Part shown: in pieces, positions 36,084 to 56,112 of the stretch
How positions within the stretch are numbered: position 1 is the first letter of the stretch
Layout: every line of letters begins with the position of its first letter
Origin: Nitrospirota bacterium
GTDB taxonomy: Bacteria; Nitrospirota; Nitrospiria; Nitrospirales; Nitrospiraceae
Length of the DNA: 64,000 bases
NCBI GenBank assembly: GCA_026387665.1
Contig: JAPLLG010000011.1
Location: 43,396 to 107,395, forward strand
Direction: 5' to 3'
Position numbers and translations under genes: made by a program
The notes under the pieces: model-generated
The model's database searches: none
Told to the model about the DNA's origin: nothing
The model's input: the letters and a program-made list of their open reading frames with translations, nothing else

Positions 36084-37643
36084 CTAGGCCACCGTGGCGT
36101 TCGGCACCTGATTGCTAGCCGCAGGCTTCTTGGCCCCTCCCCTCACCCGATGCATCTTCTCTCTCGCGTGATAAGGCACGAGCCCTTCCAGCACCATCGG
36201 CAGCCTGTCGCAGGGCACATCCTCCATGATCTTGACCGCCAGCTTCGGATCTGGCCCTGAGCGGCCTCCCACATAGATATCGACGGCATCGACCACCTTG
36301 CCATCCACCTTGGCCTTCTTGCCCAAGAGCCCAATATCCGCCACGAGGTGATTCCCGCAGGCAGCGGGGCAGCCGGACCAATGCATGGTGATCGGCTTGA
36401 GTGTGCTACCCAACCGAGCCTCCAGCGCCTTCGCCGTCTCCACCGCCCGGCTCTTCGTTTCGATGACCGCCAGGTTGCAGTAGTCGCTGCCGACGCAACT
36501 CACCAGCCCCTTGTAGACCGGCGAGGGGTTATAGGCGAATTGCTTCACCAGCGGCTCCCGATCCAGATCGCCGATCTTCCGATCTGACACGTTCGTGATG
36601 ATCAGGGCCTGCGCCGGGGAAATCCTGACCTCCCCTGTTCCATACTTCTCTGCTAAGGCTGCAATCTTGGCCAGGTCATCGTGTGTGATACGGCCTACCA
36701 AGACCTTGAGCCCCACATAGTTCATGCCCGGTTGTCTTTGCCGATAGATGCCGATATGACTCTTCTCAACTGTTTTTCGCGCATCGAGACCGGCCGGCGA
36801 CAGTTTCTTTCCTATTCGCGTTTCCACTTCTTCCCGGAACCGGCTTTCGCCCCATTCCTCCAGCAAGAAGGCCAGCCTCGCTTGGGTCCGATTCTCTCTC
36901 GATCCATGCTCCCGGAATATTTCAATGATTGCGCGACTCACGGCCAAGACGTCCCCCTCGGTCACAAAGATATCCAGCGGTGTGGCGATCCGATAGCCGC
37001 CAGACCCGAGCTTGCCTCCTGCCAACAGGTTGTACCCAACTCTCTTGCCGTGACCATCGTCGTGAGTGGCCGGCACAAGGGCCAGGTCCTGGGTTTCCAT
37101 ATGGATGCAGTTGTCCGGACAGCCTGTGACCGCCACGTTGAATTTTCGCGGCAGGTTCGAATAGGCAGCATTGCCCAGGATCTCATCGTTGATGGCCCGC
37201 ACGAGTGGCGTCGCATCCGACACTTCGTCAGGACTCAGCCCGGCGACAGGACAGGTCATGACGTTTCGCACGTTGTCCATGCCGGTCTGGAGAGAGGTCA
37301 GCCCCACCTCCTCCATCTTGGCAAAGACAGCCGGCACGTCGTCAATCTTGATCTGCCGGAGCTGTATTTGTTGCCTCGTCGTGAGGTCCAGAACGCCGTT
37401 GCCATAGGTCCCGGCGATGGCAGCCAGCGCCTTCAATTGATACGAGCCGGTCTTGCCGCCCGGTATCCGCACCCGGATCATGAAAAATCCCGGCGTGGGA
37501 TTCCTCAGAAAGAGGCCATACCACTTCAGGCGCTGGACATCGTCCTCAGGGATCGATTCCCATCCCGTTTTGGCATAGTGAGCGATCATGTCTTTCACCG
37601 CCAACCCGTCGCGAACCGTTTTGAGGGCCTCGATTTTGTTCAT
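36084..37643 (-). CDS. nirA: ferredoxin-nitrite reductase (assimilatory, sirohaem/4Fe-4S)
   Basis: 519 aa from ATG 37643 (MNKIEALK...). NirA/SiR repeats with Cys clusters (TGCPDNC; SCVGSDYCNLA; SGCPAACG). The start overlaps the upstream ORF's stop (ATGA). Confidence 0.9.
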   Translation of the reverse strand: MNKIEALKTVRDGLAVKDMIAHYAKTGWESIPEDDVQRLKWYGLFLRNPTPGFFMIRVRIPGGKTGSYQLKALAAIAGTYGNGVLDLTTRQQIQLRQIKIDDVPAVFAKMEEVGLTSLQTGMDNVRNVMTCPVAGLSPDEVSDATPLVRAINDEILGNAAYSNLPRKFNVAVTGCPDNCIHMETQDLALVPATHDDGHGKRVGYNLLAGGKLGSGGYRIATPLDIFVTEGDVLAVSRAIIEIFREHGSRENRTQARLAFLLEEWGESRFREEVETRIGKKLSPAGLDARKTVEKSHIGIYRQRQPGMNYVGLKVLVGRITHDDLAKIAALAEKYGTGEVRISPAQALIITNVSDRKIGDLDREPLVKQFAYNPSPVYKGLVSCVGSDYCNLAVIETKSRAVETAKALEARLGSTLKPITMHWSGCPAACGNHLVADIGLLGKKAKVDGKVVDAVDIYVGGRSGPDPKLAVKIMEDVPCDRLPMVLEGLVPYHAREKMHRVRGGAKKPAASNQVPNATVA

Positions 37644-37858
37644 GTTCCTTTCTCCAATGCCACTCGATAGTCGACCCTGTTTCTCTTGAGCACCACGAAG
37701 CCGGCGCGATTGAGGCGATCGATGATTGAAAAGACCGTAACCCAATCCAAGCCAGGCAACCGGGTCAAGTCTTCGAGCGAACTCGCGCCGCACTCACGCA
37801 GCCGTTGTACCACACGATCCTCGTTCGACATCACAGCATGATCAATCATGGTCCCCAT
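37640..37858 (-). CDS. small winged-helix-like protein (hypothetical)
   Basis: 72 aa. The pattern V..L...G..SLEDL......D...V..II..L...G.V resembles FeoC/ArsR-size wHTH domains. Translationally coupled to nirA. Confidence 0.5.
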   Translation of the reverse strand: MGTMIDHAVMSNEDRVVQRLRECGASSLEDLTRLPGLDWVTVFSIIDRLNRAGFVVLKRNRVDYRVALEKGT

Positions 37859-37888
37859 GGCTCCCTCCCTCCTGTTCGACTCCGGTGA

Positions 37889-38716
37889 TCAGCAGGCCTC
37901 CCGTGCCGGAATGGCACGCGGCAGTTCTCTTGCCTCTGCCTGATTAACGGTATAGGGGCTCGCCAGCCAGTACAGACCACCGACGAACAGCCCGCCACCC
38001 ACGATGTTTCCCACTACGACATAAAACTGGTTGTACCAGTAGCCTGTCCAGCTAACAGCGGGCACGTGGGGGAGAAACAGCGCCATGCCAAGGAGCGATT
38101 GGTTGGCGACACTATGCTCGAATCCAGTGCCGATAAAGGCGAACAGGCACCAGAAGATCAGCATGATCTTGGCCGCATCGTTCGTCGTCCGCCCGGAAGT
38201 CCAGACAGCCAGGCAGACGAGCCAGTTGCACAGAAGACCCCGGAGAAACAGCTCCCACGCCGGCAGCGACATCTTCATGGCCGCCACGTTTCCAATCAGC
38301 TCGGCCTGCGGTCCCTTGGACAGGACGCCCGATTGGACGACCAGCCAGGCCAGCGCCAGCGAGCCGACGAGATTGCCGAACCAGGACCAGACGTTGAGCC
38401 GCACCACTTGGGTCCAGGTGAGGCTGCGCGACAGCCCGCCGATGACTCCGGTCATGTTGTTGCCGGTAAACAATTCCGATCCGGCGAAGATCACCAGGGT
38501 GAGGGCGATCCCGAACGACACGCCCATCACCAGCTTCAGTACCGGCGATCCAGCCGTGGCCAACGGCCCGCCGACACTGAAAATCAACGCGATGCCGAAT
38601 CCCACATAGACGCCAGCCAAAGCCGAGAGAATGAGGTAGCGTGACAGCGAAACCTTCAGAAACCGATGTTTCTTCGCCGCCAACGATGCAATCCGCTCGT
38701 GATCCGTCGTATACAT
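37889..38716 (-). CDS. formate/nitrite transporter family channel (NirC/FocA-like)
   Basis: FNT-like six-TM sequence (GAELFTGN..., FEHSVAN). ATG 38716 is preceded by AAGGAGGAG, and the track start at 38734 lies upstream of that RBS. Confidence 0.85.
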   Translation of the reverse strand: MYTTDHERIASLAAKKHRFLKVSLSRYLILSALAGVYVGFGIALIFSVGGPLATAGSPVLKLVMGVSFGIALTLVIFAGSELFTGNNMTGVIGGLSRSLTWTQVVRLNVWSWFGNLVGSLALAWLVVQSGVLSKGPQAELIGNVAAMKMSLPAWELFLRGLLCNWLVCLAVWTSGRTTNDAAKIMLIFWCLFAFIGTGFEHSVANQSLLGMALFLPHVPAVSWTGYWYNQFYVVVGNIVGGGLFVGGLYWLASPYTVNQAEARELPRAIPAREAC

Positions 38717-38744
38717 CGACTCCTCCTTTGTCATCGCTAGAATC

Positions 38745-38845
38745 CCAAAAACACAACGGCGCCCGTCTTCCCGAATAGGAGACGGACGCCGTTGTCCGCG
38801 TTACATCGCTCTCTGTTCTTACGCGGCGAGAACGCCGTTGTTCCC
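38745..38845 (-). promoter_or_regulatory. ANTAR-type antiterminator/terminator leader 1 (before FNT-wHTH-nirA)
   Basis: Minus sense. P1 is GGGAAC-AACGGC-GUUCUC (38828-38845), followed by a 28-nt linker. P2 is GCGGAC-AACGGC-GUCCGU (38782-38799). The terminator ACAACGGCGUCCGU...ACGGGCGCCGUUGU + GUUUUUGGG (38745-38795) reuses the loop and 3' arm of P2. Confidence 0.7.
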
Positions 38846-38865
38846 GAACCAGACCCCGACTGGAA

Positions 38866-39306
38866 CTAGAAGGTCTTGTACTCCAGCCACTTCCCGTTCA
38901 GCGTAATTTTGCAGCGGGCTTCGCCCTGGCTGCCGGTCACCTTTTCCATGTCGAGCGTAAAGTCGATTGCGCTCATGATGCCATCGCCGAACATTTCGTT
39001 CGCCTGCTCGCGCATCGAGTCTCCATACACCCCGATGATCTCCATCAAGCGATACTTGAACGGATCGGTCGCATTCGGGAAATCGGTGCGAACCGGGAAT
39101 TTGCTCAGCGACGCGGTGAGCTCTGCATCCAGCCCCAACAGATCGCCAACTTTCTTCGCGTCCTCAGCCGGCAGCTTGTGGGTTCCCTGCAACACCGCGG
39201 CGACGAACGTGGGATTTCGCCCGACCACTTTGGCCACCTCCGCGATCGTCACCTTCTTCTCCAACCGCTTGGCTTTAATCGCGTCCTTCGGCTTCTTCGC
39301 TTCCAT
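38866..39306 (-). CDS. cynS: cyanase (cyanate hydratase)
   Basis: CynS-like: N-terminal HTH-like half and conserved C-terminal catalytic half. ATG 39306 is preceded by AAGGAGGAG. Confidence 0.9.
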   Translation of the reverse strand: MEAKKPKDAIKAKRLEKKVTIAEVAKVVGRNPTFVAAVLQGTHKLPAEDAKKVGDLLGLDAELTASLSKFPVRTDFPNATDPFKYRLMEIIGVYGDSMREQANEMFGDGIMSAIDFTLDMEKVTGSQGEARCKITLNGKWLEYKTF

Positions 39307-39348
39307 CACATGCTCCTCCTTTGTTGATACCTGCCGACCATTGCTATT

Positions 39349-40197
39349 TCAGAACCTCACGACGAGCGGCTCAGCTGCTGGCGACTCCCCCTGCACACCC
39401 CTCTCACTCGCCACTCCGTGCGCGGCATGACGGACGAGAAAATGAATCACATGGTTCCTGATCTTGTAGTAGTGGGGATGTTCGATGACCGTATCTCTCG
39501 ACCTGGGGCGAGGGATCGTCACATCCACAATTTCCGCGACGCGCGATGAAGGCCCGTTCGTCATGAGCATGATGCGGTCGGACAAGAGAATGGCCTCGTC
39601 CACATCGTGCGTGACCATGAATACCGTGTTGCGCGTGGCATTCCACATCTGGACCAACTCCTCTTGAATGACTCCTCTGGTGAGCGCATCGATCTGGGCA
39701 AAGGGCTCATCCAGCAACAACACCTTGGGCTCGATTGAAAAGGCCCTGGCGAGACCGACTCGCTGCTTCATGCCCCCCGATAGGGCGATAGGCCGCTTAT
39801 CCTCAGCCCCCTTGAGGCCGACTAACGCAATGTACTTGTGCACATGCGCGACCACCTCTTCGTGCCCCCAATCCTGGTAGGCTGACCGGACAGCCAGAGC
39901 GATGTTCTCGAACACCGTCATCCAGGGCATGAGAGCAAAATTCTGGAAGACCACCATCCGGTCCAATCCGGGCCCTGACACCTCACGCCCATTCAAGATC
40001 ACTCCCCCTTCCGACAGGGTTTCCAACCCGGCGATGATGTTGAGCAGGGTGCTCTTGCCGCATCCCGAATGGCCGATCACGGTGACGAACTCGCCCTTAT
40101 CGACTTTCAAGGTCACGTCTTTGAAGATACAGACCTCTCCGCTTCCAGCATGACCGGGAAAAAACTTGCTCACATGGTCGACGACAAGAAATGACAT
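39349..40197 (-). CDS. ABC transporter ATP-binding protein (NrtC/CynD/SsuB-type)
   Basis: Walker A GHSGCGKST, ABC signature LSGGMKQR, Walker B LLLDEPF. Confidence 0.88.
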   Translation of the reverse strand: MSFLVVDHVSKFFPGHAGSGEVCIFKDVTLKVDKGEFVTVIGHSGCGKSTLLNIIAGLETLSEGGVILNGREVSGPGLDRMVVFQNFALMPWMTVFENIALAVRSAYQDWGHEEVVAHVHKYIALVGLKGAEDKRPIALSGGMKQRVGLARAFSIEPKVLLLDEPFAQIDALTRGVIQEELVQMWNATRNTVFMVTHDVDEAILLSDRIMLMTNGPSSRVAEIVDVTIPRPRSRDTVIEHPHYYKIRNHVIHFLVRHAAHGVASERGVQGESPAAEPLVVRF

Positions 40198-40200
40198 GGG

Positions 40201-41082
40201 TTACTCCTGATAGGTCACGAGACCGGCAAGTTTGTTGAACCCTGAATCCAGAATAACGCCCACGACCCCGACCACCAGGATGGCGAAGATGACCCCGGCG
40301 ATGTCGAGATTGTTCCATTCGATCCAACTCAGGTACCCGACGCCTAACTCCCCCAACAACATCTCTGCCGGCACCACGGCGACCAATGCGCTCCCGAACG
40401 AGATTCTCAGACCGTTCACGATCGTCGGGGCCGCCCCAGGTAAAATCACCCGATAGAGCCGCTTGAACCAGGAAAGCTGCAGAATAGCCGCGACGTGGAG
40501 ATATTCCTTTTTGAGTGAACTCACGCCGAACGCCGTCGTCGCCAGGGTCGGCCAGACGGCTGCCATGAATACGACCAGGATGGCTGTCCACTTGGGATCC
40601 TTGACTGTGTACAGGAGCAAGGGCATCCAGGCCAACGGCGAGATCGGCTTCAAGATTTGAATGAAGGGGTTGACGGCTCGGAAGAGCACGCGGTTCAGCC
40701 CCAGCAGGATGCCGAAGAGGATCGCCACGACCGACGCTGCGAGGAACCCCGCGGCAAATCTCGAGACCGTGTACAAGACCAGGTAGGCGATGCCGTGGTC
40801 GTTGGTTCCCTTGATGACGAACGCCTCACCCAATTCAGTTCTCGCCTTCTCCACCACCGCGAGGGGACCCGGCACCCCCTTCATCTTCTCAGGGTTCCAG
40901 GCGTAGCCTCCTTCGCCCGTTCGGACGATGTCTCCGTTGAACTCCATCATCTGCAGTTGCTCGTCCGTCTTGCCCTTCGCATCGAAGGACGACCGTAGCG
41001 TGAGCAAATGCCACCCGCCGAGGAAGACCAGGAGGATAAACCCCCTGATCAGCCACGGATTGCCGTTATCAATTGTTTTCAT
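40201..41082 (-). CDS. ABC transporter permease (NrtB/CynB-type)
   Basis: 293 aa multi-TM BPD-transporter-like protein, in an operon with the ATPase and binding protein. Confidence 0.85.
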   Translation of the reverse strand: MKTIDNGNPWLIRGFILLVFLGGWHLLTLRSSFDAKGKTDEQLQMMEFNGDIVRTGEGGYAWNPEKMKGVPGPLAVVEKARTELGEAFVIKGTNDHGIAYLVLYTVSRFAAGFLAASVVAILFGILLGLNRVLFRAVNPFIQILKPISPLAWMPLLLYTVKDPKWTAILVVFMAAVWPTLATTAFGVSSLKKEYLHVAAILQLSWFKRLYRVILPGAAPTIVNGLRISFGSALVAVVPAEMLLGELGVGYLSWIEWNNLDIAGVIFAILVVGVVGVILDSGFNKLAGLVTYQE

Positions 41083-41103
41083 CGTGCTCTACCTCTTCAA
41101 CCA

Positions 41104-42438
41104 TTACGCCATACTGTGGATACTGAAACTACGGACGTAGGCGTCCGGTTGGCTCGCGTCGAACTCCCGGCCCATGATCGTATGCTTGGCCATCGTCCCC
41201 TGATGCGTCGGATATCCAAGCTCCTTGGCGATCCGGTCGCAGTCGGCTGCTCGATAGACTTGCTCTGCCACGGCTTTGTAATTGACCTCGCCCTTCAAGT
41301 GGCCCCACCGTTTCATTTGGGTCATGATCCAAATCGCCATCGAGTGCCAGGGATAGGGATCGAAATCGATACGGCTCGGGTCCTTTTTGATCGCGCCCAA
41401 TCCGTCCGCATAGGTTCCCGTCAACACTTGCTCCAAAACCGTCACCGGCTGATTCAAGTAATTCGTCGGCGCAATCGCCTCGGCAATCTCTTTCCTATGG
41501 GCCGGGTTGGATGCGTAGTGGGTCGCATCCACGATGGACCGGAAGAGCGCCAGGAACGTATTCGGATACTGCGTGGCGAATTCCTTGGAGATCGCGAAGC
41601 CGCAACAGGGATGCCGATCCCAGATCTCCTTGGAGAGCTTGAAGATGAACCCCGCGTTTTCGTACACAGCCCGTTGATTGAAGGGATCGGGGGCCAGATA
41701 GCCATCGACATTGCCCGCCTTCAGATTGGCCACCATCTCCGGTGGTGGCACCACGCGGATTTGCACGTCTTTGTCGGGATGCACGCCGCCCTCTGCGAGA
41801 AAATAGCGCAGGAGATAGTTATGCATCGAGTAATCAAACGGCACGCAGAAACGAAATCCCTTCATATCGGCGGCGGTTTTCACGCCCTTGTGTTTATTGT
41901 GCAGCGTGATCGCTTGGCCGTTAATATTCTCCACCGCCGGCATGTAAAACGGCACCGGGACGGAACCGGCGCCCAGCGTGATCGCTAATGGCATCGGCGA
42001 CAACATATGGGCCGCATCGACTTCTTTGTTAATCGCCCAATCGCGCACCATGGCCCAGCCGGCCGCCCGTTTGACCCTGGCATTCAGGCCATGTTTGCTA
42101 TAGAACCCCAGCGGTTCCGCCATGATGATCGGCGTGGCGCAGGTGATGGGAATAAAGCCGATGCTGAGGTCCGTCTTCTCCGGCTTCCCGACCGGATCGG
42201 CTGCAAATGCGGCGATGTGTTTTAGCGGGAGTAATTCAGCGATCAGGGCCGTTAGCGCAGCCGTGCCCATGGCTGCCAGGAACAGCCGGCGCGAGGGGTC
42301 GGCGGCTTGGATCACCGCCGCCGATACGGCTCGCTCGACGGTGCGTTCAAAATGCTCGTCGGAGGATTTGGCTTTCACGACACCGACTGCGGAGTCCGCT
42401 GGCATCTCCCGATTGTGCGCCCCATCTCCTTGGCTCAT
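41104..42438 (-). CDS. periplasmic substrate-binding protein, NrtA/CynA (nitrate/nitrite/cyanate) family, Tat signal
   Basis: 444 aa. SRRLFLAAMG twin-arginine signal and NMT1/NrtA-like body. AAGGAGG RBS. Adjacency to cynS suggests cyanate, but specificity cannot be read from sequence. Confidence 0.8.
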   Translation of the reverse strand: MSQGDGAHNREMPADSAVGVVKAKSSDEHFERTVERAVSAAVIQAADPSRRLFLAAMGTAALTALIAELLPLKHIAAFAADPVGKPEKTDLSIGFIPITCATPIIMAEPLGFYSKHGLNARVKRAAGWAMVRDWAINKEVDAAHMLSPMPLAITLGAGSVPVPFYMPAVENINGQAITLHNKHKGVKTAADMKGFRFCVPFDYSMHNYLLRYFLAEGGVHPDKDVQIRVVPPPEMVANLKAGNVDGYLAPDPFNQRAVYENAGFIFKLSKEIWDRHPCCGFAISKEFATQYPNTFLALFRSIVDATHYASNPAHRKEIAEAIAPTNYLNQPVTVLEQVLTGTYADGLGAIKKDPSRIDFDPYPWHSMAIWIMTQMKRWGHLKGEVNYKAVAEQVYRAADCDRIAKELGYPTHQGTMAKHTIMGREFDASQPDAYVRSFSIHSMA

Positions 42439-42516
42439 GACCGCCTCCTTTATGATGTTGCTGTGCCCTTTTCTCTACCGGCCTGCCTGAGTCCAACCGA
42501 CTGACCTGCGTACAAT

Positions 42517-42714
42517 AAAAAAACGTCCTCACTCCGTTGCCAGAATGAGGACGCCATTGTCCTACTCGGAGGTGGCAGAGCCACCTCGATCCAAGACTTC
42601 CTCGTCTCGGAATGGGTCACCAAACAGAACGGCGTCCGCCACTCTTTCCAGAATGACGGACGCCGTTGTCCGTGTGCCTTATGTCGAGAACTTCACCGAG
42701 GCGCCATTGCCTCG
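42517..42714 (-). promoter_or_regulatory. ANTAR-type leader 2: tandem attenuators before the NrtABC-like/cynS operon
   Basis: Minus sense. Unit 1: P1 CGAGGC-AAUGGC-GCCUCG (42697-42714), 23-nt linker, P2 ACGGAC-AACGGC-GUCCGU (42656-42673), overlapping hairpin AACGGCGUCCG...CGGACGCCGUU + cUGUUUGG. Unit 2: AGGAC-AAUGGC-GUCCU (42547-42564) overlaps the terminator CGUCCUCA...UGAGGACG + UUUUUUU (42517-42553). Confidence 0.7.
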
Positions 42715-42731
42715 ACTCAGCTCATAGGAGA

Positions 42732-42760
42732 CATGTACCATGCCTCCCCTCCTTCGTCAA
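42732..42760 (-). promoter_or_regulatory. candidate sigma-70-type promoter for leader 2
   Basis: Minus sense TTGACG-N17-TACATG, ending about 17 nt before P1. Same geometry as the candidate promoter before leader 3. Confidence 0.3.
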
Positions 42761-42788
42761 CCCATTCTACAAATAGGCCGCGAATCCT

Positions 42789-44198
42789 CTAGACATCGTA
42801 GTACAGGTAGAACTCATACGGGTGCGGACGCAACCGCATGGTATCCACTTCCTTGGTGCGCTTGTACCCGATCCAGGCATTGATCAAGTCCTTGCTGAAG
42901 ACCCCGCCCTTGAGGAGGAACTCATGGTCCTTCTCCAGGTTGTTCAAGGCTTCATCCAGGCTGCCTGGCATCGTGCGGATCTTCGACGCTTCCTTGGCTT
43001 CGAGATCGTACAGATCCTGCTCGGCCGGTTCGCCCGGATTGATCTTGTTCTGGATGCCGTCCAACCCCGCCATGAGCATGGCGGAAAAGGCGAGATAAGG
43101 ATTCGCGGCCGGGTCAGGAAACCGCACCTCGATCCGCTTCGCCTTGGGGCTCGGTGAATACATGGGGATCCGGATGCCAGCCGACCGGTTCCGGCTGGAA
43201 TAGGCCAACAACACCGGCGCTTCGAACCCTGGCGTCAGACGCTTGTAGGAATTCGTGGTCGGGTTGGTAAAAGCGGCCAACGCCGGCGCATGCTTCAGAA
43301 TGCCGCCGATGTAATGTAGACACATCTGCGACACGCCCGCATATTCCTTCCCGGCGAACAGGGGCTTGCCATCCTTCCAGATGCTCTGGTGACTGTGCAT
43401 GCCTGACCCGTTGTCTCCGAAGATCGGCTTCGGCATGAAGGTCGCGGTCTTGCCATGGCGGCGGGCGACGTTCTTGACGATGTACTTGTACATCATCATC
43501 TTGTCGGCGGTGCGGACCAGCGAATCGAAGCGGATGTCGATTTCCGCCTGACCGGCCGTGGCGACTTCATGGTGATGCTTCTCGATCTGGATGCCGGCCT
43601 TCTCCATCTCCAGAATCATTTCGCTGCGGATATCCTGTTGCGTATCGGTCGGGGCGACCGGGAAATAGCCTTCCTTCTGACGGATCTTGCCGCCCAGGTT
43701 GTGGCCTTCCTGCCCCATATTCCAGACGCCTTCTTCGGAGTCGATGAAGTAGTAGCCGCTGTGGCCGTTCTGATCGTAGCGGGCTTGATCGAAAATGAAG
43801 AACTCGGCTTCCGGGCCCCAATAGGACGTGTCGCCGATCTTCGTGCTCTTGAGGTATTTCTCCGCCTTCTGCGCCACATAGCGCGGATCGCGATCGTAGG
43901 TCTCGCGCGTAATCGGATCGACGACGTTGCCGATGAGGCTCAGCGTCGGGACCGCACAGAAGGGATCGAGACAGGCCGTCGCCGGATCCGGCACGACCAA
44001 CATGTCGCTGTTATTGATGGCCTTCCAGCCACGAATGGAGGAGCCGTCCAATCCGGACCCGTCCTTGAAGAGGTCTTCCGTCAATTCGCTCGTCGGGATG
44101 CTGAAATGCTGCCACGTCCCGATGAGATCGACGAACTTCAAGTCCACGATCTGGACCTTATGCTTCTTCACATACTCCAACACCTCACGTACGTTCAT
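42789..44198 (-). CDS. glnA: glutamine synthetase type I
   Basis: 469 aa with canonical GSI motifs. Includes a NLYDLP-like adenylylation-loop region ([11 protein letters not shown]). Confidence 0.95.
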
Positions 44199-44244
44199 CC
44201 CACTCCTCCTTTCAAATCACCCGCATGAGACCCTGCCGCCTCTG

Positions 44245-46931: not shown

Positions 46932-47282
<351 letters not shown>

Positions 47283-47367
47283 TTACCTGGCTGACCCGAA
47301 AGCAACGACTGTACATCGTCGCTGGGGTCGCCGGCATGATCGCGTGGTCGATAGTGTCATGGTCCGT

Positions 47368-48774: not shown

Positions 48775-48801
48775 CCCCTCCTTCTCCTCGGTCACCCCTG
48801 C

Positions 48802-50190
48802 TTACGAATAGGACCGTTCCTCATGTTGACTGAGGTCCAAGCCCATTCGCTCTTCCTCTTCACTCACACGCAGCCCCATCAATCCATCCACCAGTTTCAG
48901 AATCACGAAGGTTCCCACGAACGAAAACACCACCGAGATCAGCACGGCCATCGCTTGAATGCCCAACTGTGCCGGATTCCCGTAGAACAGCCCGTCGGCG
49001 CCGGCTGCATTGATCGCCTTCGAGGCAAACAACCCGGTCGCCAGCGCGCCCCAGATGCCTCCGACTCCATGAATCCCCACCACATCGAGGGCGTCATCGT
49101 AGCCCAGCCTGGACTTCCACAACACCGCTCCATAGCAGAGGACTCCCGCCCCCAGACCGATCACGATCGACGCCATCGGACCGACGAATCCCGAAGCAGG
49201 CGTAATCGCCACCAGCCCAGCCACCGCGCCGCTGGCCGCGCCCAGCACGGTCGGTTTGCCTCGATACATCCACTCCGCAACCATCCAGGCCAGCGCTGCA
49301 GTGGCTGCCGCCGTATTGGTCACAACAAAGGCGCTGGTCGCCAACGCTCCGGAAGCGACCGCGCTACCTGCGTTGAACCCGAACCAGCCGAACCAAAGCA
49401 GGGAGGCGCCCAGCACGGTCATAGGCAAATTATGCGGAGCCATATGTTCCTTGCCGTAGCCCAATCGCTTCCTCAGCACGATGGCACAGGCCAGGGCCGC
49501 AGCGCCGGAACTGATGTGGACGACCGTCCCGCCGGCGAAGTCCAGCGCTCCCATGTTTCGAACCCAGCCCCCGACCGCCCACACCCAATGGGCGAGCGGA
49601 TCGTAGATGAACGTCGCCCACAACAAAGTGAAGACCAGAAAACTGCCGAACTTCATCCGTTCGGCAAAGGCGCCGGTCATGAGGGCCGGCGTAATCACCG
49701 CGAACATCATTTGAAAGATCATGAAGGCTTGATGGGGCACGGTCGCGGCATAATCAGCGTTGGGCTCCAACCCGACGCCGTTCAGCCCGATCCATTCAAG
49801 CCCGCCAATCAGATGGGCCTTATCCGGCCCGAAGGCCAGACTGTAGCCCCACAAGACCCACTGGAGACTGATCAGGCAGAGAATGATAAAGCTCTGCATG
49901 ATCGTGCCCAAAGCATTCTTCGAGCGAACCATGCCGGCATAAAACAAGGCCAGACCTGGCGCCGTCATCGCCAGCACCAATGCCGTCGAGACCAATAGCC
50001 AGGTCGTGTCGCCCGTATCGATCTTCGTCTGGGCTGGTACGACCGCCGGGGCCGCCTCTTGGCCAAGAGGCGCCGTCGCTGCCGGAGCCGGAGCCCCCGC
50101 GTCTTGCGCATAGAGACCCGTCGCCCCGATCAGGATAGCGCAGGCCAGGACGGGAAGCATCGCGGTCATGATACGTGTAAATCGGTTCAT
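48802..50190 (-). CDS. amtB: ammonium transporter (paralogue)
   Basis: 462 aa Amt family protein with a signal-like N-terminus and a strong RBS. Confidence 0.92.
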   Translation of the reverse strand: MNRFTRIMTAMLPVLACAILIGATGLYAQDAGAPAPAATAPLGQEAAPAVVPAQTKIDTGDTTWLLVSTALVLAMTAPGLALFYAGMVRSKNALGTIMQSFIILCLISLQWVLWGYSLAFGPDKAHLIGGLEWIGLNGVGLEPNADYAATVPHQAFMIFQMMFAVITPALMTGAFAERMKFGSFLVFTLLWATFIYDPLAHWVWAVGGWVRNMGALDFAGGTVVHISSGAAALACAIVLRKRLGYGKEHMAPHNLPMTVLGASLLWFGWFGFNAGSAVASGALATSAFVVTNTAAATAALAWMVAEWMYRGKPTVLGAASGAVAGLVAITPASGFVGPMASIVIGLGAGVLCYGAVLWKSRLGYDDALDVVGIHGVGGIWGALATGLFASKAINAAGADGLFYGNPAQLGIQAMAVLISVVFSFVGTFVILKLVDGLMGLRVSEEEERMGLDLSQHEERSYS

Positions 50191-50213
50191 GATGAGCTCC
50201 TTTCCTCCCCTGC

Positions 50214-51518
50214 TTAGAAGAGGTAGATGATTTGGAATGACAGGGTTTCTTGATTGTTCACCGGTCGATTGCCATAGAGAAACACGTTCTTGTCTGATTT
50301 ATCGTACCGGAACTCGGTCCGCGTGATCAGAGAAGGAAATGGCTTGTATTGAAGCGTAAAGGTATTCTCCCAGAGTGTTTGAGCCGTCGGCGGGGCCGCG
50401 ACCGTCGCGGTCGCCCCCGCACAGGTATTGGTGCCTCCGGCAAACCCGAATGTTCCACTACAGGTCCGAGCCCCTCCCGCATCCTCGAAGATTTCCCCGC
50501 GGAATCTGGCGCTCCATTGATCGGTGAAATCATGGGTCAGGTAGCCGGCCAGCCCATTCCATCGAGCATTTCGTGATCGGTTGACCGTGCTCGCGTTCCC
50601 TTCATTCCCGTAGTAGGGCTCCAGAACGATCGTGTCCTGGTCGGTGGCCTTGACGGTCATGATCGTCCCCACCACCGTCCGCTTGGCCGTCGGATCGGCG
50701 CCGGTGGAGGCAGGTGCCGTCCCTTGGCTGTTGGATTGCTCTGCGCCGTAGGACCCGTAGAAACTCATACCGAACTTCTCATGCGGTGTCAGAGCCAGGA
50801 GCCACTCAAAGGATTTGCTCTTGTTGTTATCCGTCACGTTATCCCACCCGTTGATCACGCCGATCGAGGCAGTCACAAGCGGATTGAACGTATAGCTGAG
50901 CCGGACGCCGGTGGTCGTGAAGGCCTGACCCAAGCCGAACATGAAACTGCGGGAAAAGTTCGGGTTCTCGAAACTGTTGATCACCTCATAGCCGATCAAC
51001 GTATTGATCTTCCCTGCTTGAATCTTCAGGCCATTGCCAACCGGGGCGATGTATTCGCCGTAGACCTCTTGAAAGTCGAGCTCGTTGTTGCTGGTGCCTG
51101 GCGCGAAATTGGTACGCGCCCTCGTCACCCTGGCATCCAACCCGAAGTTCAGCCTGGTACGGAACCCGAGCCGGTCCATGCCGCTCCCCGCTCCATCAGC
51201 AGGCCGTTCAAGCATGATTTGCACCATGTGGGTCGAAAAGGAATTCGCATCGGTGTCGAAGATATGCAGTTGATTGAGATTGGTATTGGGATTATTGAAA
51301 TTGTGGGTATAGGCTACATCCAGAAACCCGGAGGCCTTGAATCCCAAGGTCTTCCAGATGGACGGCGCATCCACTTTCTTCTCTAAGGAATCCAGCCGCT
51401 CCTGCACGGTCGGCGCCGGGGCCGGCGGCGCCGCTGGCCCTTGGGCAAATACTGCGTTGCCGCCGAGCAGCGACAACAGCGCCCACAATCCTATACAGAT
51501 GAGACTGCGTACTGACAT
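50214..51518 (-). CDS. outer-membrane porin (nitrogen-cluster associated)
   Basis: Start set at ATG 51518 (MSVRSLICIGLWALLSLLGGNAVFAQG signal peptide, GGAGGA RBS). Beta-strand-rich with a terminal ...FQIIYLF. The longer track ORF translates the leader RNA. Confidence 0.75.
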   Translation of the reverse strand: MSVRSLICIGLWALLSLLGGNAVFAQGPAAPPAPAPTVQERLDSLEKKVDAPSIWKTLGFKASGFLDVAYTHNFNNPNTNLNQLHIFDTDANSFSTHMVQIMLERPADGAGSGMDRLGFRTRLNFGLDARVTRARTNFAPGTSNNELDFQEVYGEYIAPVGNGLKIQAGKINTLIGYEVINSFENPNFSRSFMFGLGQAFTTTGVRLSYTFNPLVTASIGVINGWDNVTDNNKSKSFEWLLALTPHEKFGMSFYGSYGAEQSNSQGTAPASTGADPTAKRTVVGTIMTVKATDQDTIVLEPYYGNEGNASTVNRSRNARWNGLAGYLTHDFTDQWSARFRGEIFEDAGGARTCSGTFGFAGGTNTCAGATATVAAPPTAQTLWENTFTLQYKPFPSLITRTEFRYDKSDKNVFLYGNRPVNNQETLSFQIIYLF

Positions 51519-51711
51519 AGTGACATCCTCCCTCGTCCGATTGGTGATTCCGTTGCTCATGCCCCTTGCCGCTCTCACCTCGACGACGTCGTCGCCACGC
51601 ACGCCCTTGTGCGCAATCTCTCTCCCCTCACGTCCAGATCGATTCCACCAGCCAACCGATCCATCTCGATTCTCAGCTTTTCCACGCGATTCAGCCTGCT
51701 CGAGTGTAGTC

Positions 51712-51803
51712 AAAAAAAAACGCCCTCTAGCCCGCTGGGGCTGGAGGACGCCATTGTCCATGCCGTACTATCTTGAGGCCGGTGGGAAACGCCGTTGTTC
51801 CCC
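51712..51803 (-). promoter_or_regulatory. ANTAR-type antiterminator/terminator leader 3 (before porin-amt-amt-glnB-glnD-glnA)
   Basis: Minus sense. P1 is GGGGAAC-AACGGC-GUUUCCC (51784-51803), followed by a ~23-nt linker. P2 is GGAC-AAUGGC-GUCC (51746-51759). The terminator CGUCCUC-c-AGCCC-cagc-GGGCU-a-GAGGGCG + U9 (51712-51750) reuses the 3' arm of P2. Confidence 0.7.
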
Positions 51804-51818
51804 TGTCCGATGGGCCAC

Positions 51819-51848
51819 CTTGTATCATGTAGCGGGAAAATCTGTCAA
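51819..51848 (-). promoter_or_regulatory. candidate sigma-70-type promoter for leader 3
   Basis: Minus sense TTGACA-N18-TACAAG, ending about 16 nt before P1. Confidence 0.3.
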
Positions 51849-51914
51849 CGTCTTTGCCTGTCATATACTCCGGCCTGGCCAGGACCTATCGTCTGTGCTA
51901 GATTCACTCATACT

Positions 51915-52886
51915 ATGCTCCTTCCATCGCCATCCTCGCCGATAGAGTTGCCACGCAAGTCTGCGTTTTCCCTGGTCCTCCTCTGTCTTCTCTGCGCCGC
52001 CTGTACGATGGTCGACCAGAGCGACAGAGTCCTCTTCGAAGACCCGCGCGGAACGGTGACGCTGCACCGGATGCCAGATCAATCGATTCAGGCCAGTCAC
52101 CCGATCAGCCTGGAGCCAGCCCTCATCGCCCGTGTCTTGAGCGGCATGCAGGTCCAGGAACGCCAACGGACCCTCCAAGAGATGTTGGGTGGATCGGCCT
52201 CCGCCTTGCCGGTCTTTTCGCCCGAAGAAGTCCAATTCCTCACTCCCAGGATTACCAAAGCCCTCACAACCGCCTCAACGGGAGAGGCCGTATCATTCCA
52301 GGTCACGAGCCCTCGCCAAAACACTGGCCGCTTGGAACATGCAGTCATCGAAACCACGACAGGCTCTCTCTACGCTTATGGCCTCTCGCTGTATGTGACG
52401 CTCGCTCAATATCGACATGCGCCGACCCAAGCGAACACGGACGGGCTTGCCCACCGGAAGCTGCCAGACTCGTCCAACCTGTCAAATCGCACCCTGTCGT
52501 TCACTCCAAGCCTTGCCCAACGGTCCGATACTTTCAACCGGTCGACAGGCGGAAGCTCGACCGACCGGTTTCTCGTCATCGACTATCAGCTGCTGCAACA
52601 GACCGCGCCAGTAGCAGCAACAACCACTGAGCAACCTGCGCCTCAGGTGGAACGGGCCGCACAACCTCGCGAGCCTCTCGCGGGAGTCACGCCACCCAAT
52701 ACTCCATCCCGCACCGCAGAGCCCCTGGCTCAGCGCGAAATGGAGATTCGCACGTTGAAAGATCTCGTGGTCAAAAAAGACTTGGAGTTGGAAACCGTCA
52801 GGAAGGAACTGCAATCAGTTCGCAAACAACTCGATAGCCAGAAGCGAAAACCCGCACCGTTAAAGCCCCGGCAGATCGCCCCGTAA
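51915..52886 (+). CDS. lipoprotein with C-terminal coiled coil (hypothetical)
   Basis: ATG 51915. Lipobox-like LLCAAC and a C-terminal heptad-like region LKDLVVKKDLELETVRKELQSVRKQLD. Confidence 0.55.
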   Translation: MLLPSPSSPIELPRKSAFSLVLLCLLCAACTMVDQSDRVLFEDPRGTVTLHRMPDQSIQASHPISLEPALIARVLSGMQVQERQRTLQEMLGGSASALPVFSPEEVQFLTPRITKALTTASTGEAVSFQVTSPRQNTGRLEHAVIETTTGSLYAYGLSLYVTLAQYRHAPTQANTDGLAHRKLPDSSNLSNRTLSFTPSLAQRSDTFNRSTGGSSTDRFLVIDYQLLQQTAPVAATTTEQPAPQVERAAQPREPLAGVTPPNTPSRTAEPLAQREMEIRTLKDLVVKKDLELETVRKELQSVRKQLDSQKRKPAPLKPRQIAP

Positions 52887-52935
52887 CCATCCCCTCTGCT
52901 ATTCAGATATTTGTGCTACTACCTGAAATTCATCC

Positions 52936-53061
52936 CGCAGGATGCTCAAAAGGCCCATTCAGTAAGGCCGCAACGAGTGAAGGGCCGAGGCGTGCCCGTA
53001 GGGCACGTTGATGGCCTGAACGATGCGAGAACGAAGCTGACGGGCTTTTTCAGCATCCTGC
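52936..53061. repeat. Imperfect-palindrome intergenic repeat, copy D
   Basis: GCAGGATGCTCAAAAGGCCC...GGGCTTTTTCAGCATCCTGC. Core is GCGAGAACGAAGCTGAC. Abuts the nadE stop. Confidence 0.85.
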
Positions 53062-54839
53062 TAAAAATTACGATAGCCGTTCGTGATCGGCATCCGCCGA
53101 TCCTTGCCCAAAGCCCGCTGTGTGATCTTGATGCCGATCGGCGCCTGCCGGCGCTTGTACTCGCTGCCATCCACTAACGCAATCACGCGGGCCACCGTCG
53201 TGCGGTCGTACCCCGCTTCAACGATCTCTTCGAGCGACCGGTCTTCTTCCACATAGGCCTGGAGAATGGGATCTAAGATCTCATAGGGAGGCAACGAGTC
53301 TTCATCCTTTTGATTGGGCCTCAGCTCGGCGGTCGGCGGCCGATCGAGCGTCCGTTTGGGGATTGCCGGGGTTACGCCACGACGATTGCGCAGCTTCGCC
53401 AGATCATAGACCATCGTCTTCGGGACGTCCTTGATTGCGGCAAAGCCGCCTGCCATATCCCCATACAGAGTGGCGTAGCCCACGCTCATCTCGCTCTTAT
53501 TGCCTGTGGTGAGCACCAGGTGGCCGAACTTATTGGAGAAGGCCATCAGCAAGTTGCCCCGGATGCGGGCCTGGAGATTCTCTTCCGTCGTATCTGGCGC
53601 GCGGCCCTCAAACGTCTCCGCAAGCGATTGCCGATAGGTATCAAACAGCGTCGTGATGGGAATCGTGCGCACGGAAATCGCAAGCCGTTTTCCCAATTCA
53701 GCCACATCCTCGTAACTGTCTTGCGATGTGTAGGGCGACGGCATGAACAGACCCCACACATTCTCGGCTCCCAGCGCATCGACGGCCAGCACGGCAGTCA
53801 AGGCCGAGTCCACTCCACCGCTCAACCCGATCATGACCCGTGTAAATCCATTTTTCCTCACGTAGTCTCGCACGCCAAGCGTGAGGGCCCGATACACTTC
53901 CTCCAGTGGGTCCAGGGCCGCTACCAGATCAGGAACCGCCCGCGCGCGAACTTTGGGAACGGCCGGAAGCGACGCCGCGCAAATTTCCACCGTGGAGGCA
54001 ACCCGTCGAGGAAGGAGCTTCTTCTGGCCCTGCGTACGCCTCGCCCGCGCGACCGCCTCCATATTGAGGTCAGCCACGATAAGATCCTCCTCGAAGGCTT
54101 TCCCTCGCGCGATGACCTCACCCTGATGATCGAGGATCACACTGTTCCCGTCGAAGACCAGCTCGTCCTGCCCGCCGACCACGTTGGTGTAGGTCAACAC
54201 CACCCCGTTTTCCCTCGCGCGGGTCGCCAACATCTGTTCGCGCACCCGGCTCTTGCCCAGATGAAAGGGCGAGGCATTGATGTTGACGATGACTTCGGCG
54301 CCAGCCGCTGCCTGAAACCGCGTCGGGCCTTCCGGCACCCAGACGTCCTCGCAAATATTGACCCCGATCAACGTGCCACGCAGGCGGATGAGCGGCAACC
54401 GCCGGCCTGGATGAAAATAGCGGCTCTCGTCGAACACCCCGTAGTTCGGCAGATACCACTTGCAATAGGTCGTGATGAGTTTTTGATCGGCGATGAACGC
54501 CGCCGCATTGTAGAGTTCGTGCGAACCGGCCGGCACCACCGACGAACGGGCCGGCTTCGGATCGATGCCATCGCTCTGGCTGACGTAGCCCACCACCGCG
54601 GCAAGGCCCCGGCAGTGCCGAACGATTTCCTGAAGCGCGCGGCGATTGTCCGCGATAAAACGAGGCTTCAACAAGAGGTCTTCGGGCGGATAGCCGGTGA
54701 TCGCCAGTTCGGGGAATGCGACTAAGTCGACCTTTGCCTTCTTCGCCTCGCGCAGCCAGGCCGTGATCCGGCGGACGTTTCCGTCGAGATCTCCGACCGT
54801 CGGATTCATCTGCACCATGGCGATACGAAACGTACGCAT
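53061..54839 (-). CDS. nadE: glutamine-dependent NAD+ synthetase
   Basis: 592 aa. N-terminal CN-hydrolase (nitrilase-like) domain plus C-terminal NAD synthetase with the SGGVDS PP-loop. Confidence 0.92.
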   Translation of the reverse strand: MRTFRIAMVQMNPTVGDLDGNVRRITAWLREAKKAKVDLVAFPELAITGYPPEDLLLKPRFIADNRRALQEIVRHCRGLAAVVGYVSQSDGIDPKPARSSVVPAGSHELYNAAAFIADQKLITTYCKWYLPNYGVFDESRYFHPGRRLPLIRLRGTLIGVNICEDVWVPEGPTRFQAAAGAEVIVNINASPFHLGKSRVREQMLATRARENGVVLTYTNVVGGQDELVFDGNSVILDHQGEVIARGKAFEEDLIVADLNMEAVARARRTQGQKKLLPRRVASTVEICAASLPAVPKVRARAVPDLVAALDPLEEVYRALTLGVRDYVRKNGFTRVMIGLSGGVDSALTAVLAVDALGAENVWGLFMPSPYTSQDSYEDVAELGKRLAISVRTIPITTLFDTYRQSLAETFEGRAPDTTEENLQARIRGNLLMAFSNKFGHLVLTTGNKSEMSVGYATLYGDMAGGFAAIKDVPKTMVYDLAKLRNRRGVTPAIPKRTLDRPPTAELRPNQKDEDSLPPYEILDPILQAYVEEDRSLEEIVEAGYDRTTVARVIALVDGSEYKRRQAPIGIKITQRALGKDRRMPITNGYRNF

Positions 54840-54846
54840 AGCCCCC

Positions 54847-56112
54847 TTAGTGCCTGACTCGATCGGCCCGTTCTTCGATATCGCCCGCGAGGAGAATCGC
54901 CTCGGCGATCTCGCGCATCGATTTCCGAAGATCCATACTTTGGCGTTGAATGAGCTTGAAGGCCTCTTCTTCGGTCAGCTTCTTCGCACGCATGAGATAA
55001 CCCTTGGCCCGCTCCATGAGCTTCCGAACCGCCAGCGCTTCCTGCATCTCGAAGGACTTCTCGATCAGGGTCGTATGCTCGATGGCGATGGCCGCCTGAT
55101 TCGCGATGGCCTGGAGTAGCTTGACCTCTTCGCTGGTAAACACGTGAGGCACGGCCGTATAGCTATTGATCACCCCCACAGCCTTTTCCCGCACCATCAT
55201 CGGGACAGAGACCATCGAACAGAGCCCTTCCTTCTTGGCCAAATCCGGGAACATATAGTCCTGCTCTTTAGTCACGTCGGCCACAATGATCGGCCTGCGA
55301 TCTTGCACGGCGCGCCCGCTGATACTCTGCCCGACCTTGAGGTTCGGCTTCCGGCGGTATTGCTCGCTGAGGCTTTGCGTCGCCTCGATCCGCAACTCTC
55401 CACTCACCTGATCCAGCAACATGATCGAGCAGATCTTGGAATTCATCATTTGCGCGGTCATCGTGACCAGGAGTTGCAGCACATCTTCGATCAAACGATT
55501 GGAGGCCACCGTTTCCGACACCAGCGACAGGGTTTCCACCTGCAGGGCCTTGCGTTTCATTTGATCGTAGAGCCGCGCATTCTCAATCGCGCCACCGACC
55601 TGATTGGCAATAGTGGACAACAGCGCGATCTCGTCGGGCCGATAGCGCTTGGGACGCTTGTGCTGCACATTGATCACGCCAACCACTTCCTTCTTGGCCA
55701 TGATCGGCACGGAGACAAAGGCTTGATGGCGGTCTTCCGGAAGGTTGTGAAAAAACTTGAAGCGCGGGTCGTCGCTCGCATTGCTCGGAATCACAACGCG
55801 GGTCCGTTCCTGGGCTACCCACCCGGTGATGCCCTCGCCCAACCCGATCGTGATGCGGCCGATTAATTTCGGATGGGGATTCTTGGAGGCTCGCAGGATG
55901 AGTTCGTCCTGGCCATCCGACAAGAGATAGAGAAGACAGGCATCCGCCTTAGTGACTTCGACGACCACTTCGACGATATGCCGGAGGACGGCTTCAAGAT
56001 CCAGCTGGTTGCTGATCGATTCCGTGATCCGATGGAGCACATCGACTTCGCGTGTTTTTTCGCGCAACGCCTGCTGGAGATGAGCCACGGAGGGTGTGCG
56101 TTTGGTCGTCAT
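54847..56112 (-). CDS. GAF-GAF-ANTAR RNA-binding antitermination regulator
   Basis: 421 aa. Two GAF-like halves (each ending ..VGVIN...) followed by ALAVRKLMERAKGYLMRAKKLTEEEAFKLIQRQSMDLRKSMREIAEAIL. This matches the ANTAR consensus (..IE.AKG.LM....L.E.EA...L...SM..........A..I.). Confidence 0.88.
   Translation of the reverse strand: MTTKRTPSVAHLQQALREKTREVDVLHRITESISNQLDLEAVLRHIVEVVVEVTKADACLLYLLSDGQDELILRASKNPHPKLIGRITIGLGEGITGWVAQERTRVVIPSNASDDPRFKFFHNLPEDRHQAFVSVPIMAKKEVVGVINVQHKRPKRYRPDEIALLSTIANQVGGAIENARLYDQMKRKALQVETLSLVSETVASNRLIEDVLQLLVTMTAQMMNSKICSIMLLDQVSGELRIEATQSLSEQYRRKPNLKVGQSISGRAVQDRRPIIVADVTKEQDYMFPDLAKKEGLCSMVSVPMMVREKAVGVINSYTAVPHVFTSEEVKLLQAIANQAAIAIEHTTLIEKSFEMQEALAVRKLMERAKGYLMRAKKLTEEEAFKLIQRQSMDLRKSMREIAEAILLAGDIEERADRVRH

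Follow-up and report, generated by a model that had tools for sequence, protein, structure and literature searches.

In the 64-kb stretch of contig JAPLLG010000011.1 from a Nitrospirota bacterium that was analyzed here (the window), the genes for nitrogen acquisition and assimilation are preceded by four RNA elements, attenuators A, B1, B2, and C, each composed of two small hairpins with six-nucleotide loops (hexaloops), P1 and P2, and a terminator that shares sequence with P2. This RNA architecture is conserved among Nitrospira, is specific to one strand, shows covariation, is syntenic with a nearby gene for a protein with two GAF domains and an ANTAR domain (GAF-GAF-ANTAR), and is missing from five loci that lack that gene. 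The elements are probably protein-dependent attenuators of the ANTAR type, most likely worked by the neighboring GAF-GAF-ANTAR protein; we infer that this protein binds the RNAs, that it is their cognate regulator, and what class of ligand it reads.

All four attenuators lie on the minus strand, in the sense of the genes that follow them (Table 1). In the minimum free energy (MFE) structures calculated with RNAfold, each leader folds into P1 and a GC-rich, U-run terminator that absorbs the loop and/or the 3′ arm of P2. When P1 and P2 are forced to form together, the cost relative to the terminator fold is 6.3 (A), 26.1 (B1), 12.6 (B2), and 21.0 (C) kcal/mol. Because the terminator fold outcompetes the P1–P2 fold in energy, termination is the expected default, and because P2 alone is worth just -4 to -8 kcal/mol, compared with -25 to -35 kcal/mol for the terminator, an external stabilizer would be required for P2 to persist. 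The two mutually exclusive folds proposed in a preliminary description of this DNA are recovered in the MFE and constrained folds, in agreement with a terminator scan, and the G·U pairs of P1, P2, and the terminators are, as had been claimed, restricted to the minus-sense RNA. The same description counted three leaders of one architecture, with AAYGGC in every hexaloop and linkers of ~23–28 nt between P1 and P2. The minus-strand order of P1, linker, P2, and terminator holds, but the modules number four, two of them in the nrtA leader. Seven of the eight window hairpins carry AACGGC or AAUGGC, whereas the P1 loop of B2 reads GAGGAA. The linkers are indeed long, at about 21–28 nt (21, 24, and 27 nt when the stems are taken as maximal), within P1–P2 modules that span 58–65 nt.

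Hairpins of this kind are confined to one strand of the window. Stems of at least 4 bp closed by AAYGGC are absent from the plus strand and number nine on the minus strand, seven of them in the leaders of the porin gene, nrtA, and the FNT gene. As a control, the 3′ flanks were permuted among the 96 AAYGGC sites (2000 permutations), which yielded a mean of 2.4 and a maximum of 8 hairpins with stems of at least 4 bp; for stems of at least 6 bp, the permutation mean was 0.41 and the maximum 3, compared with five observed. A minus-strand pair of AATGGC sequences at 59630/59672 was considered as a fifth leader and rejected: it lies in coding sequence upstream of a secretin gene, forms no hairpins, and has no match to the covariance model described below. 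A search of the whole window against Rfam at gathering thresholds gave 0 matches. The only match at E ≤ 1 in positions 36000–56200, to P11, scored 21.6 bits against a threshold of 70 and was judged to be due to chance.

For comparison, 80 Nitrospira loci with flanks of +/-10 kb were fetched with GlnD as the probe (GlnD identity 64–97%); the closest named species by GlnD is N. lenta (94%), and gene order is mostly conserved across the loci. A descriptor composed of two A..G.. hexaloop hairpins 3–45 nt apart and a T-run matched 158 times in the sense orientation and 7 times in antisense. The matches fall at fixed sites, between glnA and nrtA, between glnA and the FNT gene, between cynS and the FNT gene or amt, and between nadE and the porin gene or amt; in many lineages, they are also found upstream of nadE. 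The training set of a covariance model, R1, comprised 74 modules from more distantly related Nitrospira and left out both the window and its nearest relatives. With filters off, R1 finds four sites in the window, each of them in a leader and on the minus strand, at E values from 1.4e-14 to 1.2e-6: attenuators A (51744–51803; 54.7 bits, E 3.4e-13), B1 (59.9 bits, E 1.4e-14), B2 (29.9 bits, E 1.2e-6), and C (42.0 bits, E 7.6e-10). The next-best match (42915–42969, E 0.011) was rejected, as it lies inside glnA and has improper loops. Across the window and the 80 loci (1.35 Mb), R1 returns 134 matches at E ≤ 1e-3, of which 132 are in sense and 2 in antisense, so that the covariance-model scan suggested in the preliminary description singles out the leaders in the window and one orientation in the wider set.

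This strand asymmetry bears directly on whether the motif acts as DNA. At the DNA level, GGAC-N6-GTCC forms an inverted repeat, as do the P1 arms; some of these repeats lie 12–18 bp downstream of promoter-like elements, and they could in principle be palindromic operators of a transcription factor or repeats of the repetitive extragenic palindromic (REP) or miniature inverted-repeat transposable element (MITE) type. Such a role is, however, barely credible in view of the 132 to 2 ratio and of the G·U pairs, which would be A·C mismatches on the other strand. In addition, the P1 arms vary freely while complementarity is kept, it is the asymmetric loop that is conserved, the overlap with a terminator and U-run is obligatory, and 24 elements lie inside operons without a promoter.

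Alignment of the orthologous leaders supports the paired structure in RNA. Compensatory changes affect six of the seven P1 pairs, both when the nrtA-type leader is aligned with MAFFT and in the model-fitted alignment, and the 18-bp terminator is 98.9% paired (alignment A1). The third nucleotide of the P2 loop, N3, which is the sole variable loop position, covaries with the 3′ arm of the terminator (AU 25, CG 5, GC 1, GU 2, UG 1), giving combinations such as AACGG/CCGUU, AAAGG/CCUUU, and AAGGG/CCCUU, which is direct evidence that this loop enters the alternative helix. In 41 of 43 orthologues of the porin/nadE type, the terminator sequesters the 3′ arm of P2, though the 43 apical sequences all differ. 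The hexaloops follow the consensus A-A-N-G-R-C (AANGRC): A is found at position 1 in 127/129 P1 loops and 130/132 P2 loops, and G at position 4 in 129/129 and 132/132.

As described by Ramesh et al. (2012), an ANTAR target consists of two hexaloop hairpins with A at loop position 1 (A1) and G at position 4 (G4), the second of which overlaps a terminator (PMC3369931). The elements described here likewise comprise tandem stem–loops on the sense strand, hexaloops in which A1 and G4 are near-invariant across hits, as the preliminary description had anticipated from the ANTAR rule, and a P2 hairpin that overlaps the terminator.

Several observations weigh against this assignment or limit the evidence for it. 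The linker across hits has a median of 22 nt (range 10–34) and is typically 17–28 nt, and none of the window modules has the short linker of the eut leaders. EutV accepts linkers of 5–12 nt, and a linker of 14 nt or an extension by a further 20 nt abolishes antitermination (PMC3369931, PMC8934654). On account of these linkers, the preliminary description had raised the possibility of a variant class. That argument is weak; the hits in the supplementary table of PMC3369931 span 41–91 nt, and because this range already includes spans of 58–65 nt, the long linker is better regarded as a property of the system than as the mark of a new class. The U-run of attenuator B1 is poor (CUGUUUGG), loop position 1 is G rather than A in P1 of B2, and a G is likewise found at position 1 of the P2 loop in locus L066. 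The A1 and G4 statistics are partly circular because both the descriptor and the covariance model presuppose these nucleotides. Finally, the covariation expected in orthologous leaders is present in P1, the terminator, and N3 of the P2 loop, but the GGAC/GUCC core of P2 is invariant, and covariation therefore speaks neither for nor against this stem.

The candidate antiterminator protein is a one-component regulator of 421 residues. The Pfam matches (GAF_2 twice and ANTAR, PF03861, at 66.7 bits against a cut-off of 27.3, E 1.5e-18) bear out the GAF-GAF-ANTAR architecture read earlier from the translation, with GAF domains at residues ~12–190 (GAF1) and ~194–352 (GAF2) and the ANTAR domain at residues 356–407. 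This layout, a C-terminal ANTAR domain preceded by sensor domains, is that of the one-component ANTAR regulators, and sequence matches of the ANTAR domain in the PDB include Rv1626 (1s8n), the response regulator 6wsh, and NasR (4akk). It is the only ANTAR domain within the window. The gene is flanked by the genes for 3-dehydroquinate synthase (DHQS) and NadE, and the order DHQS-ANTAR-nadE is kept in every fetched locus that contains the regulator gene. At a median identity of 84.7% (81–98), the protein is far more conserved than GlnD (68.5%), DHQS (64%), or NadE (73%). Public annotations of it are generic ("GAF and ANTAR domain-containing protein", "conserved protein of unknown function").

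The distribution of the gene follows that of the RNA. In five loci (L019, L021, L027, L044, and L048), DHQS abuts nadE, and the regulator gene, the amt, nrt, FNT, and nirA genes, and any R1 match are missing together. L027 (6012–6176), from a record labeled Rifle_cladeA, retains a 60-residue remnant of the N terminus of the regulator (62% identity) with an in-frame stop. Comammox Nitrospira are described as lacking assimilatory nitrite reductase and cyanase (PMC6311188). The synteny with the cluster and the joint absence from these loci point to the neighboring ANTAR protein as the regulator, in keeping with the proposal made earlier.

The same RNA mechanism could be worked by another ANTAR protein, for example one with an N-terminal response-regulator receiver (REC) domain like NasT, with the GAF-GAF-ANTAR protein serving other targets. 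The analysis covered 64 kb of this genome and flanks of +/-10 kb in the others, so that such a protein could be encoded elsewhere in the genome, as could a copy of the regulator in the motif-less loci, and both points count against the pairing proposed here. ANTAR domains are also not specialized by architecture (PMC7496416), and the RNA motif thus cannot name its partner. This alternative appears distinctly unlikely, as no other ANTAR gene lies in the window and the GAF-GAF-ANTAR gene keeps synteny with the regulon, is far more conserved than its neighbors, and is missing from exactly the five motif-less loci, with a remnant in L027.

Elements that need no protein are highly improbable. An undescribed metabolite riboswitch is conceivable given that Rfam has no match, and terminators alone would attenuate, so that leaky terminators or inter-operon insulators with decorative hairpins could be imagined. 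The conserved part, however, consists of two tiny hexaloop hairpins without a core that resembles a ligand pocket, the linker varies in sequence and length, and P2 cannot beat the terminator unaided at the energies given above. The fit of the architecture to an ANTAR target and the fact that the five loci without an ANTAR gene also lack the motif argue instead for protein-dependent attenuation.

A scan with a regular expression (TTGAC.-N16-18-TA...(T/A/G), ending 12–18 nt before P1) located promoter-like elements upstream of two of the window leaders; the -10 elements end 15 nt before P1 of attenuator A and 16 nt before P1 of B1. Among orthologous leaders, the element is present in 29/33 between glnA and nrtA, 16/17 between glnA and the FNT gene, 8/10 between nadE and the porin gene, 4/5 of the other porin-type leaders, and 7/9 between the ANTAR gene and nadE. 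The same scan found it in 0/24 attenuators downstream of cynS, which begin 20–70 nt after the cynS stop codon. Attenuator C is of this last kind: it begins 20 nt past the cynS stop, lacks a promoter-like element, and is probably internal to an operon, in which the FNT gene, the 72-residue open reading frame (ORF), and nirA would form the far end of nrt-cynS under a gate of their own. Rather than the three transcription units of the preliminary description, two promoters with four attenuators are the more probable arrangement. Read-through from the porin-glnA unit into the nrt unit is possible, since the attenuators are the sole terminators after glnA. The -10 region is unusual in that it follows a TG, both in the window promoters and in orthologues (cATGaTACAAg and cATGgTACATg in the window, gATGgTATACa in N. 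defluvii), which suggests that a promoter of the extended -10 type is shared across the regulon.

In the mechanism proposed, transcription would start upstream of the porin and nrtA leaders, at their sigma-70-like promoters, and would reach the FNT leader by read-through from cynS. By default, the nascent RNA would fold P1, and the terminator would then consume the loop and 3′ arm of P2, with transcription stopping at the U-run. By analogy with EutV and NasR, the active regulator, probably a dimer, would bind, through its two ANTAR domains, the P1 and P2 hexaloops (AANGRC); the bound P2 would remain closed, the terminator would be blocked, and RNA polymerase would read through. The four gates would govern the porin and both ammonium transporters; PII, GlnD, and glutamine synthetase (GS); a cyanate/nitrate-type ABC transporter and cyanase; and the nitrite channel and NirA. 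Low glutamine and/or high 2-oxoglutarate would turn the regulator on.

The signal is the least secure step of this scheme. The best NCBIfam and PDB matches of GAF1 are to the GAF domains of EI-Ntr/PtsP (NF008283, 1.3e-37; PDB 3ci6, 5.7e-24, and 3trc) and NifA (TIGR01817, 2e-29; the NifA-like protein 4g3k), all of which match at the level of the domain and score far under the cut-offs for full-length proteins; such homology does not by itself fix the ligand. The GAF domain of NifA binds 2-oxoglutarate. In EI-Ntr, the GAF domain binds glutamine (PMC4848567), and NadE is tied to PII signaling (PMC7196632). Because GAF1 resembles these domains and because the regulon consists of amt, glnB, glnD, glnA, and, elsewhere, nadE, cellular nitrogen status (glutamine/2-oxoglutarate) is most likely the signal, in preference to nitrite or cyanate. 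Control by one of the substrates nitrite, nitrate, and cyanate, in the manner of NasR and NreA, is less probable but retains some weight, given that the NasR and NasT regulons answer to nitrate/nitrite (PMC7496416, PMC3795266), that the regulon holds the nitrite channel, nirA, and cyanase, and that GAF2 has a faint match to the nitrate sensor NreA, which counts against nitrogen status as the signal. That match, at 2e-6, is far below the cut-off and far weaker than those of GAF1 to EI-Ntr (1e-37) and NifA (2e-29), and general nitrogen-limitation genes predominate in the regulon. In addition, nitrite is a permanent energy substrate of these organisms and would be little informative, and work on N. 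japonica cited in PMC6606698 states that ammonia represses assimilatory nitrite reduction.

The survey also brought out differences among lineages. In many (L011-L063 and others; e.g. L060:5151-5256 and L012:6079-6168), a promoter-like element and a dual-hairpin attenuator precede nadE, and nadE is for that reason counted as part of the regulon there; in the window, nadE lies 8 nt downstream of the regulator gene and has no attenuator of its own. A sub-class with a 7-nt linker, GACCGAC-AACGAC-GUCGGUC N7 CUGGC-AAUGGC-GCCAG, is found in N. defluvii-type loci (L060:7154-7196; also L025, L036, L040, L050, L052, L059, and L063), directly past the nadE stop and upstream of a DUF6733 secreted protein and amt. 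No terminator overlapping P2 was seen on inspection of this sub-class, and it may work differently. Two loci, L055 and L066, contain the regulator gene and are silent with R1 at E ≤ 1e-3, yet modules were found in them by eye (L066:1400-1520, L055:3840-3900) with P2 loop GAUGAC (G at position 1) and P1 loop AAGGGC; the module of L055 is masked by a run of N.

Further features were observed within the leaders. The sequence just 5′ of P2 recurs between leader classes (…AUAAGGCA-ACGGAC and …ACGGCAU-GGAC; 42620-42716 and the linker columns of alignment A1). The linkers of several leaders contain CUCGAC, the complement of a GUCGAG in the P1 5′ arm or its extension, which hints at additional structure within the long linker. 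A lone minus-strand hexaloop hairpin at 51593-51614, UUGCGCAC-AAGGGC-GUGCGUGG, lies in the 5′ untranslated region of the porin gene, ~75 nt before the start codon, and is conserved with an AAUGGC loop in L001, L002, L004, L007, and L013; neither a partner hairpin nor a terminator was found for it, and its covariance-model score is 6.8 bits (E 1.7).

The gene identities given in the preliminary description agree with Pfam (Table 1). Two mechanical ORF calls, those of the porin gene and nirA, are too long at the 5′ end. The 515-residue version of the porin ORF, starting at 51761, was rejected because it would place P2 in coding sequence; the ATG at 51518 precedes a signal peptide. Between the FNT gene and nirA, a small winged helix-turn-helix protein had been proposed: the ORF, which encodes 72 residues and overlaps the over-extended nirA call, is real and conserved, with tblastn matches in 28 Nitrospira loci, but its similarity to MarR/winged-helix proteins is below threshold. 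Its TGA overlaps the nirA ATG (ATGA), and this overlap of stop and start suggests translational coupling. The gap between nadE and the porin leader holds a divergent plus-strand ORF (~51915-52886) whose product has a signal like that of lipoproteins (LLCLLCAAC) and a charged C terminus that may form a coiled coil; it has no match in the Pfam search.

Table 1. Genes, attenuators, and promoter-like elements of the nitrogen-assimilation cluster, in window coordinates
Feature	Position	Strand	Evidence
3-Dehydroquinate synthase (DHQS)	56109-57374	-	Pfam
GAF-GAF-ANTAR one-component regulator, 421 aa, candidate antiterminator protein	54847-56112	-	Pfam
nadE, glutamine-dependent NAD synthetase	53061-54839	-	Pfam
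1.2-kb gap with plus-strand lipoprotein-like ORF	about 51800-53060		
Sigma-70-like element TTGACA-N18-TACAAG, porin-amt-glnBDA unit	51819-51848	-	regex scan
Attenuator A P1, GGGGAAC-AACGGC-GUUUCCC	51784-51803	-	sequence, fold
Attenuator A P2 (antiterminator hairpin), GGAC-AAUGGC-GUCC	51746-51759	-	
Attenuator A terminator, 5′ arm begins within P2 loop, then U9	51712-51752	-	MFE fold
BBP2/OmpL-type porin, ATG 51518 and signal peptide	50214-51518	-	Pfam, translation, sequence
amt, first copy	48802-50190	-	Pfam
amt, second copy	47368-48795	-	Pfam
glnB	46932-47270	-	Pfam
glnD	44245-46929	-	Pfam
glnA	42789-44198	-	Pfam
Sigma-70-like element TTGACG-N17-TACATG, nrtA leader	42732-42760	-	
Attenuator B1, before nrtA	42618-42716	-	fold, terminator scan, covariance model, alignment A1
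Attenuator B1 P1, loop AAUGGC	42716-42695	-	
Attenuator B1 P2, loop AACGGC	42673-42656	-	
Attenuator B1 terminator, 18 bp, weak U-run CUGUUUGG	42667-42628	-	
Attenuator B2, second in nrtA leader	42517-42610	-	fold, terminator scan, covariance model
Attenuator B2 P1, degenerate loop GAGGAA; inserted hairpin follows	42610-42591	-	
Attenuator B2 P2, loop AAUGGC	42563-42548	-	
Attenuator B2 terminator, U7, better U-run than B1	42555-42522	-	
NrtA/CynA-like binding protein	41104-42438	-	Pfam
ABC transporter permease	40201-41082	-	Pfam
ABC transporter ATPase	39349-40197	-	Pfam
Cyanase, cynS	38866-39309	-	Pfam
Attenuator C, before FNT-72-aa ORF-nirA	38747-38846	-	fold, covariance model
Attenuator C P1, loop AACGGC	38846-38827	-	
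Attenuator C P2, loop AACGGC	38799-38782	-	
Attenuator C terminator, U5	38795-38753	-	
FNT/NirC nitrite channel	37889-38734	-	Pfam, NCBIfam
Conserved 72-aa ORF between FNT gene and nirA	37640-37858	-	tblastn conservation
nirA, true ATG 37643	36084-37643	-	Pfam, NCBIfam

The arrangement is reminiscent of the eut leaders of Enterococcus faecalis, which are recognized by EutV/EutW and also contain tandem A1/G4 hexaloop hairpins, with P2 over the 5′ arm of the terminator (PMC3369931, PMC8934654). Similar to the cluster described here, eut has several attenuators, some of them internal, and termination by default. The main differences are that the eut regulator is a REC-ANTAR protein activated by phosphorylation rather than a one-component GAF-GAF-ANTAR protein, that an extension of the eut linker is not tolerated, that the loop consensus is tighter here (AANGRC), and that the eut pathway serves the use of ethanolamine. 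ANTAR control of assimilatory nitrate/nitrite genes through a two-hairpin leader is also known for NasR/nasF of Klebsiella oxytoca and NasS-NasT of Paracoccus/Bradyrhizobium (PMC7496416, PMC3795266, PMC6759348), and NasR, like the regulator described here, is a one-component sensor-ANTAR protein. In the Nas systems, the sensor is a NIT domain or NasS, responds to nitrate/nitrite, and controls a single operon, whereas here the sensor is a tandem of GAF domains, and the regulon also includes amt, PII, GlnD, GS, and cyanase. EI-Ntr (PtsP) and NifA carry a GAF domain like GAF1, but their output is phosphoenolpyruvate-phosphotransferase activity or a sigma-54 AAA+ activator in place of ANTAR. In Geobacter sulfurreducens, GnfK/GnfR form an ANTAR response-regulator cascade with a REC-type regulator.

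Regulons of this scope have precedents. The covariance model of Ramesh et al. (2012) matched upstream of PII, ammonium transporter, nitrate/nitrite transporter, nitrite reductase, and GS genes, with 13 elements in six transcription units in Desulfotomaculum acetoxidans and a further prediction for nif of Pelobacter carbinolicus (PMC3369931). As in the present cluster, those predicted regulons of other phyla place ANTAR targets over nitrogen genes, with global control by attenuation. Since ANTAR control of PII, amt, GS, and nitrite reductase genes had been predicted in 2012, the regulon concept is not new, and the system in the window is a well-supported new example of a known ANTAR mechanism rather than a new kind of system. 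The preliminary description had regarded this wiring as undescribed for nitrite oxidizers, which holds for Nitrospira in the literature found: Nitrospira does not occur in the supplementary files of PMC3369931, a full-text search returned only author names and unrelated papers and no paper linking ANTAR or antitermination to Nitrospira, and no paper was found on the regulation of the Nitrospira nitrogen-assimilation cluster, which has itself been described as syntenic (PMC6311188).

A broader reading may be offered tentatively, and we hold it to be possible but rather doubtful. Canonical nitrite-oxidizing Nitrospira might exert global nitrogen control almost wholly by attenuation from constitutive sigma-70-type promoters, and not at initiation through NtrC, NtcA, GlnR, or AmtR. 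A single GAF-GAF-ANTAR protein would read glutamine/2-oxoglutarate, gate all routes of nitrogen acquisition (ammonium, cyanate, and nitrite, and NAD synthetase in some lineages), and accept a spacing ~2x that of EutV, and the lineage of the five motif-less loci, one of which is labeled as comammox clade A, a group without assimilatory nitrite reductase and cyanase, would have discarded the circuit wholly, both regulator and RNA elements.

Nitrospira are the dominant nitrite oxidizers of soils, waters, and wastewater plants. For the regulation of their nitrogen-assimilation cluster, the elements described here provide a testable circuit, with four attenuators mapped and candidates named for two promoters, the regulator, and the class of ligand. 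GAF-ANTAR proteins are a large ANTAR group of which none had been characterized as of 2020 (PMC7496416), and the regulator could be a natural model for this class; the conserved long-linker geometry is relevant to how a dimer of ANTAR proteins contacts a pair of hairpins. Although unsurprising to specialists in ANTAR proteins, the circuit is a useful hypothesis for nitrifier physiology, and read-through at the attenuators could mark nitrogen limitation of Nitrospira in metatranscriptomes.

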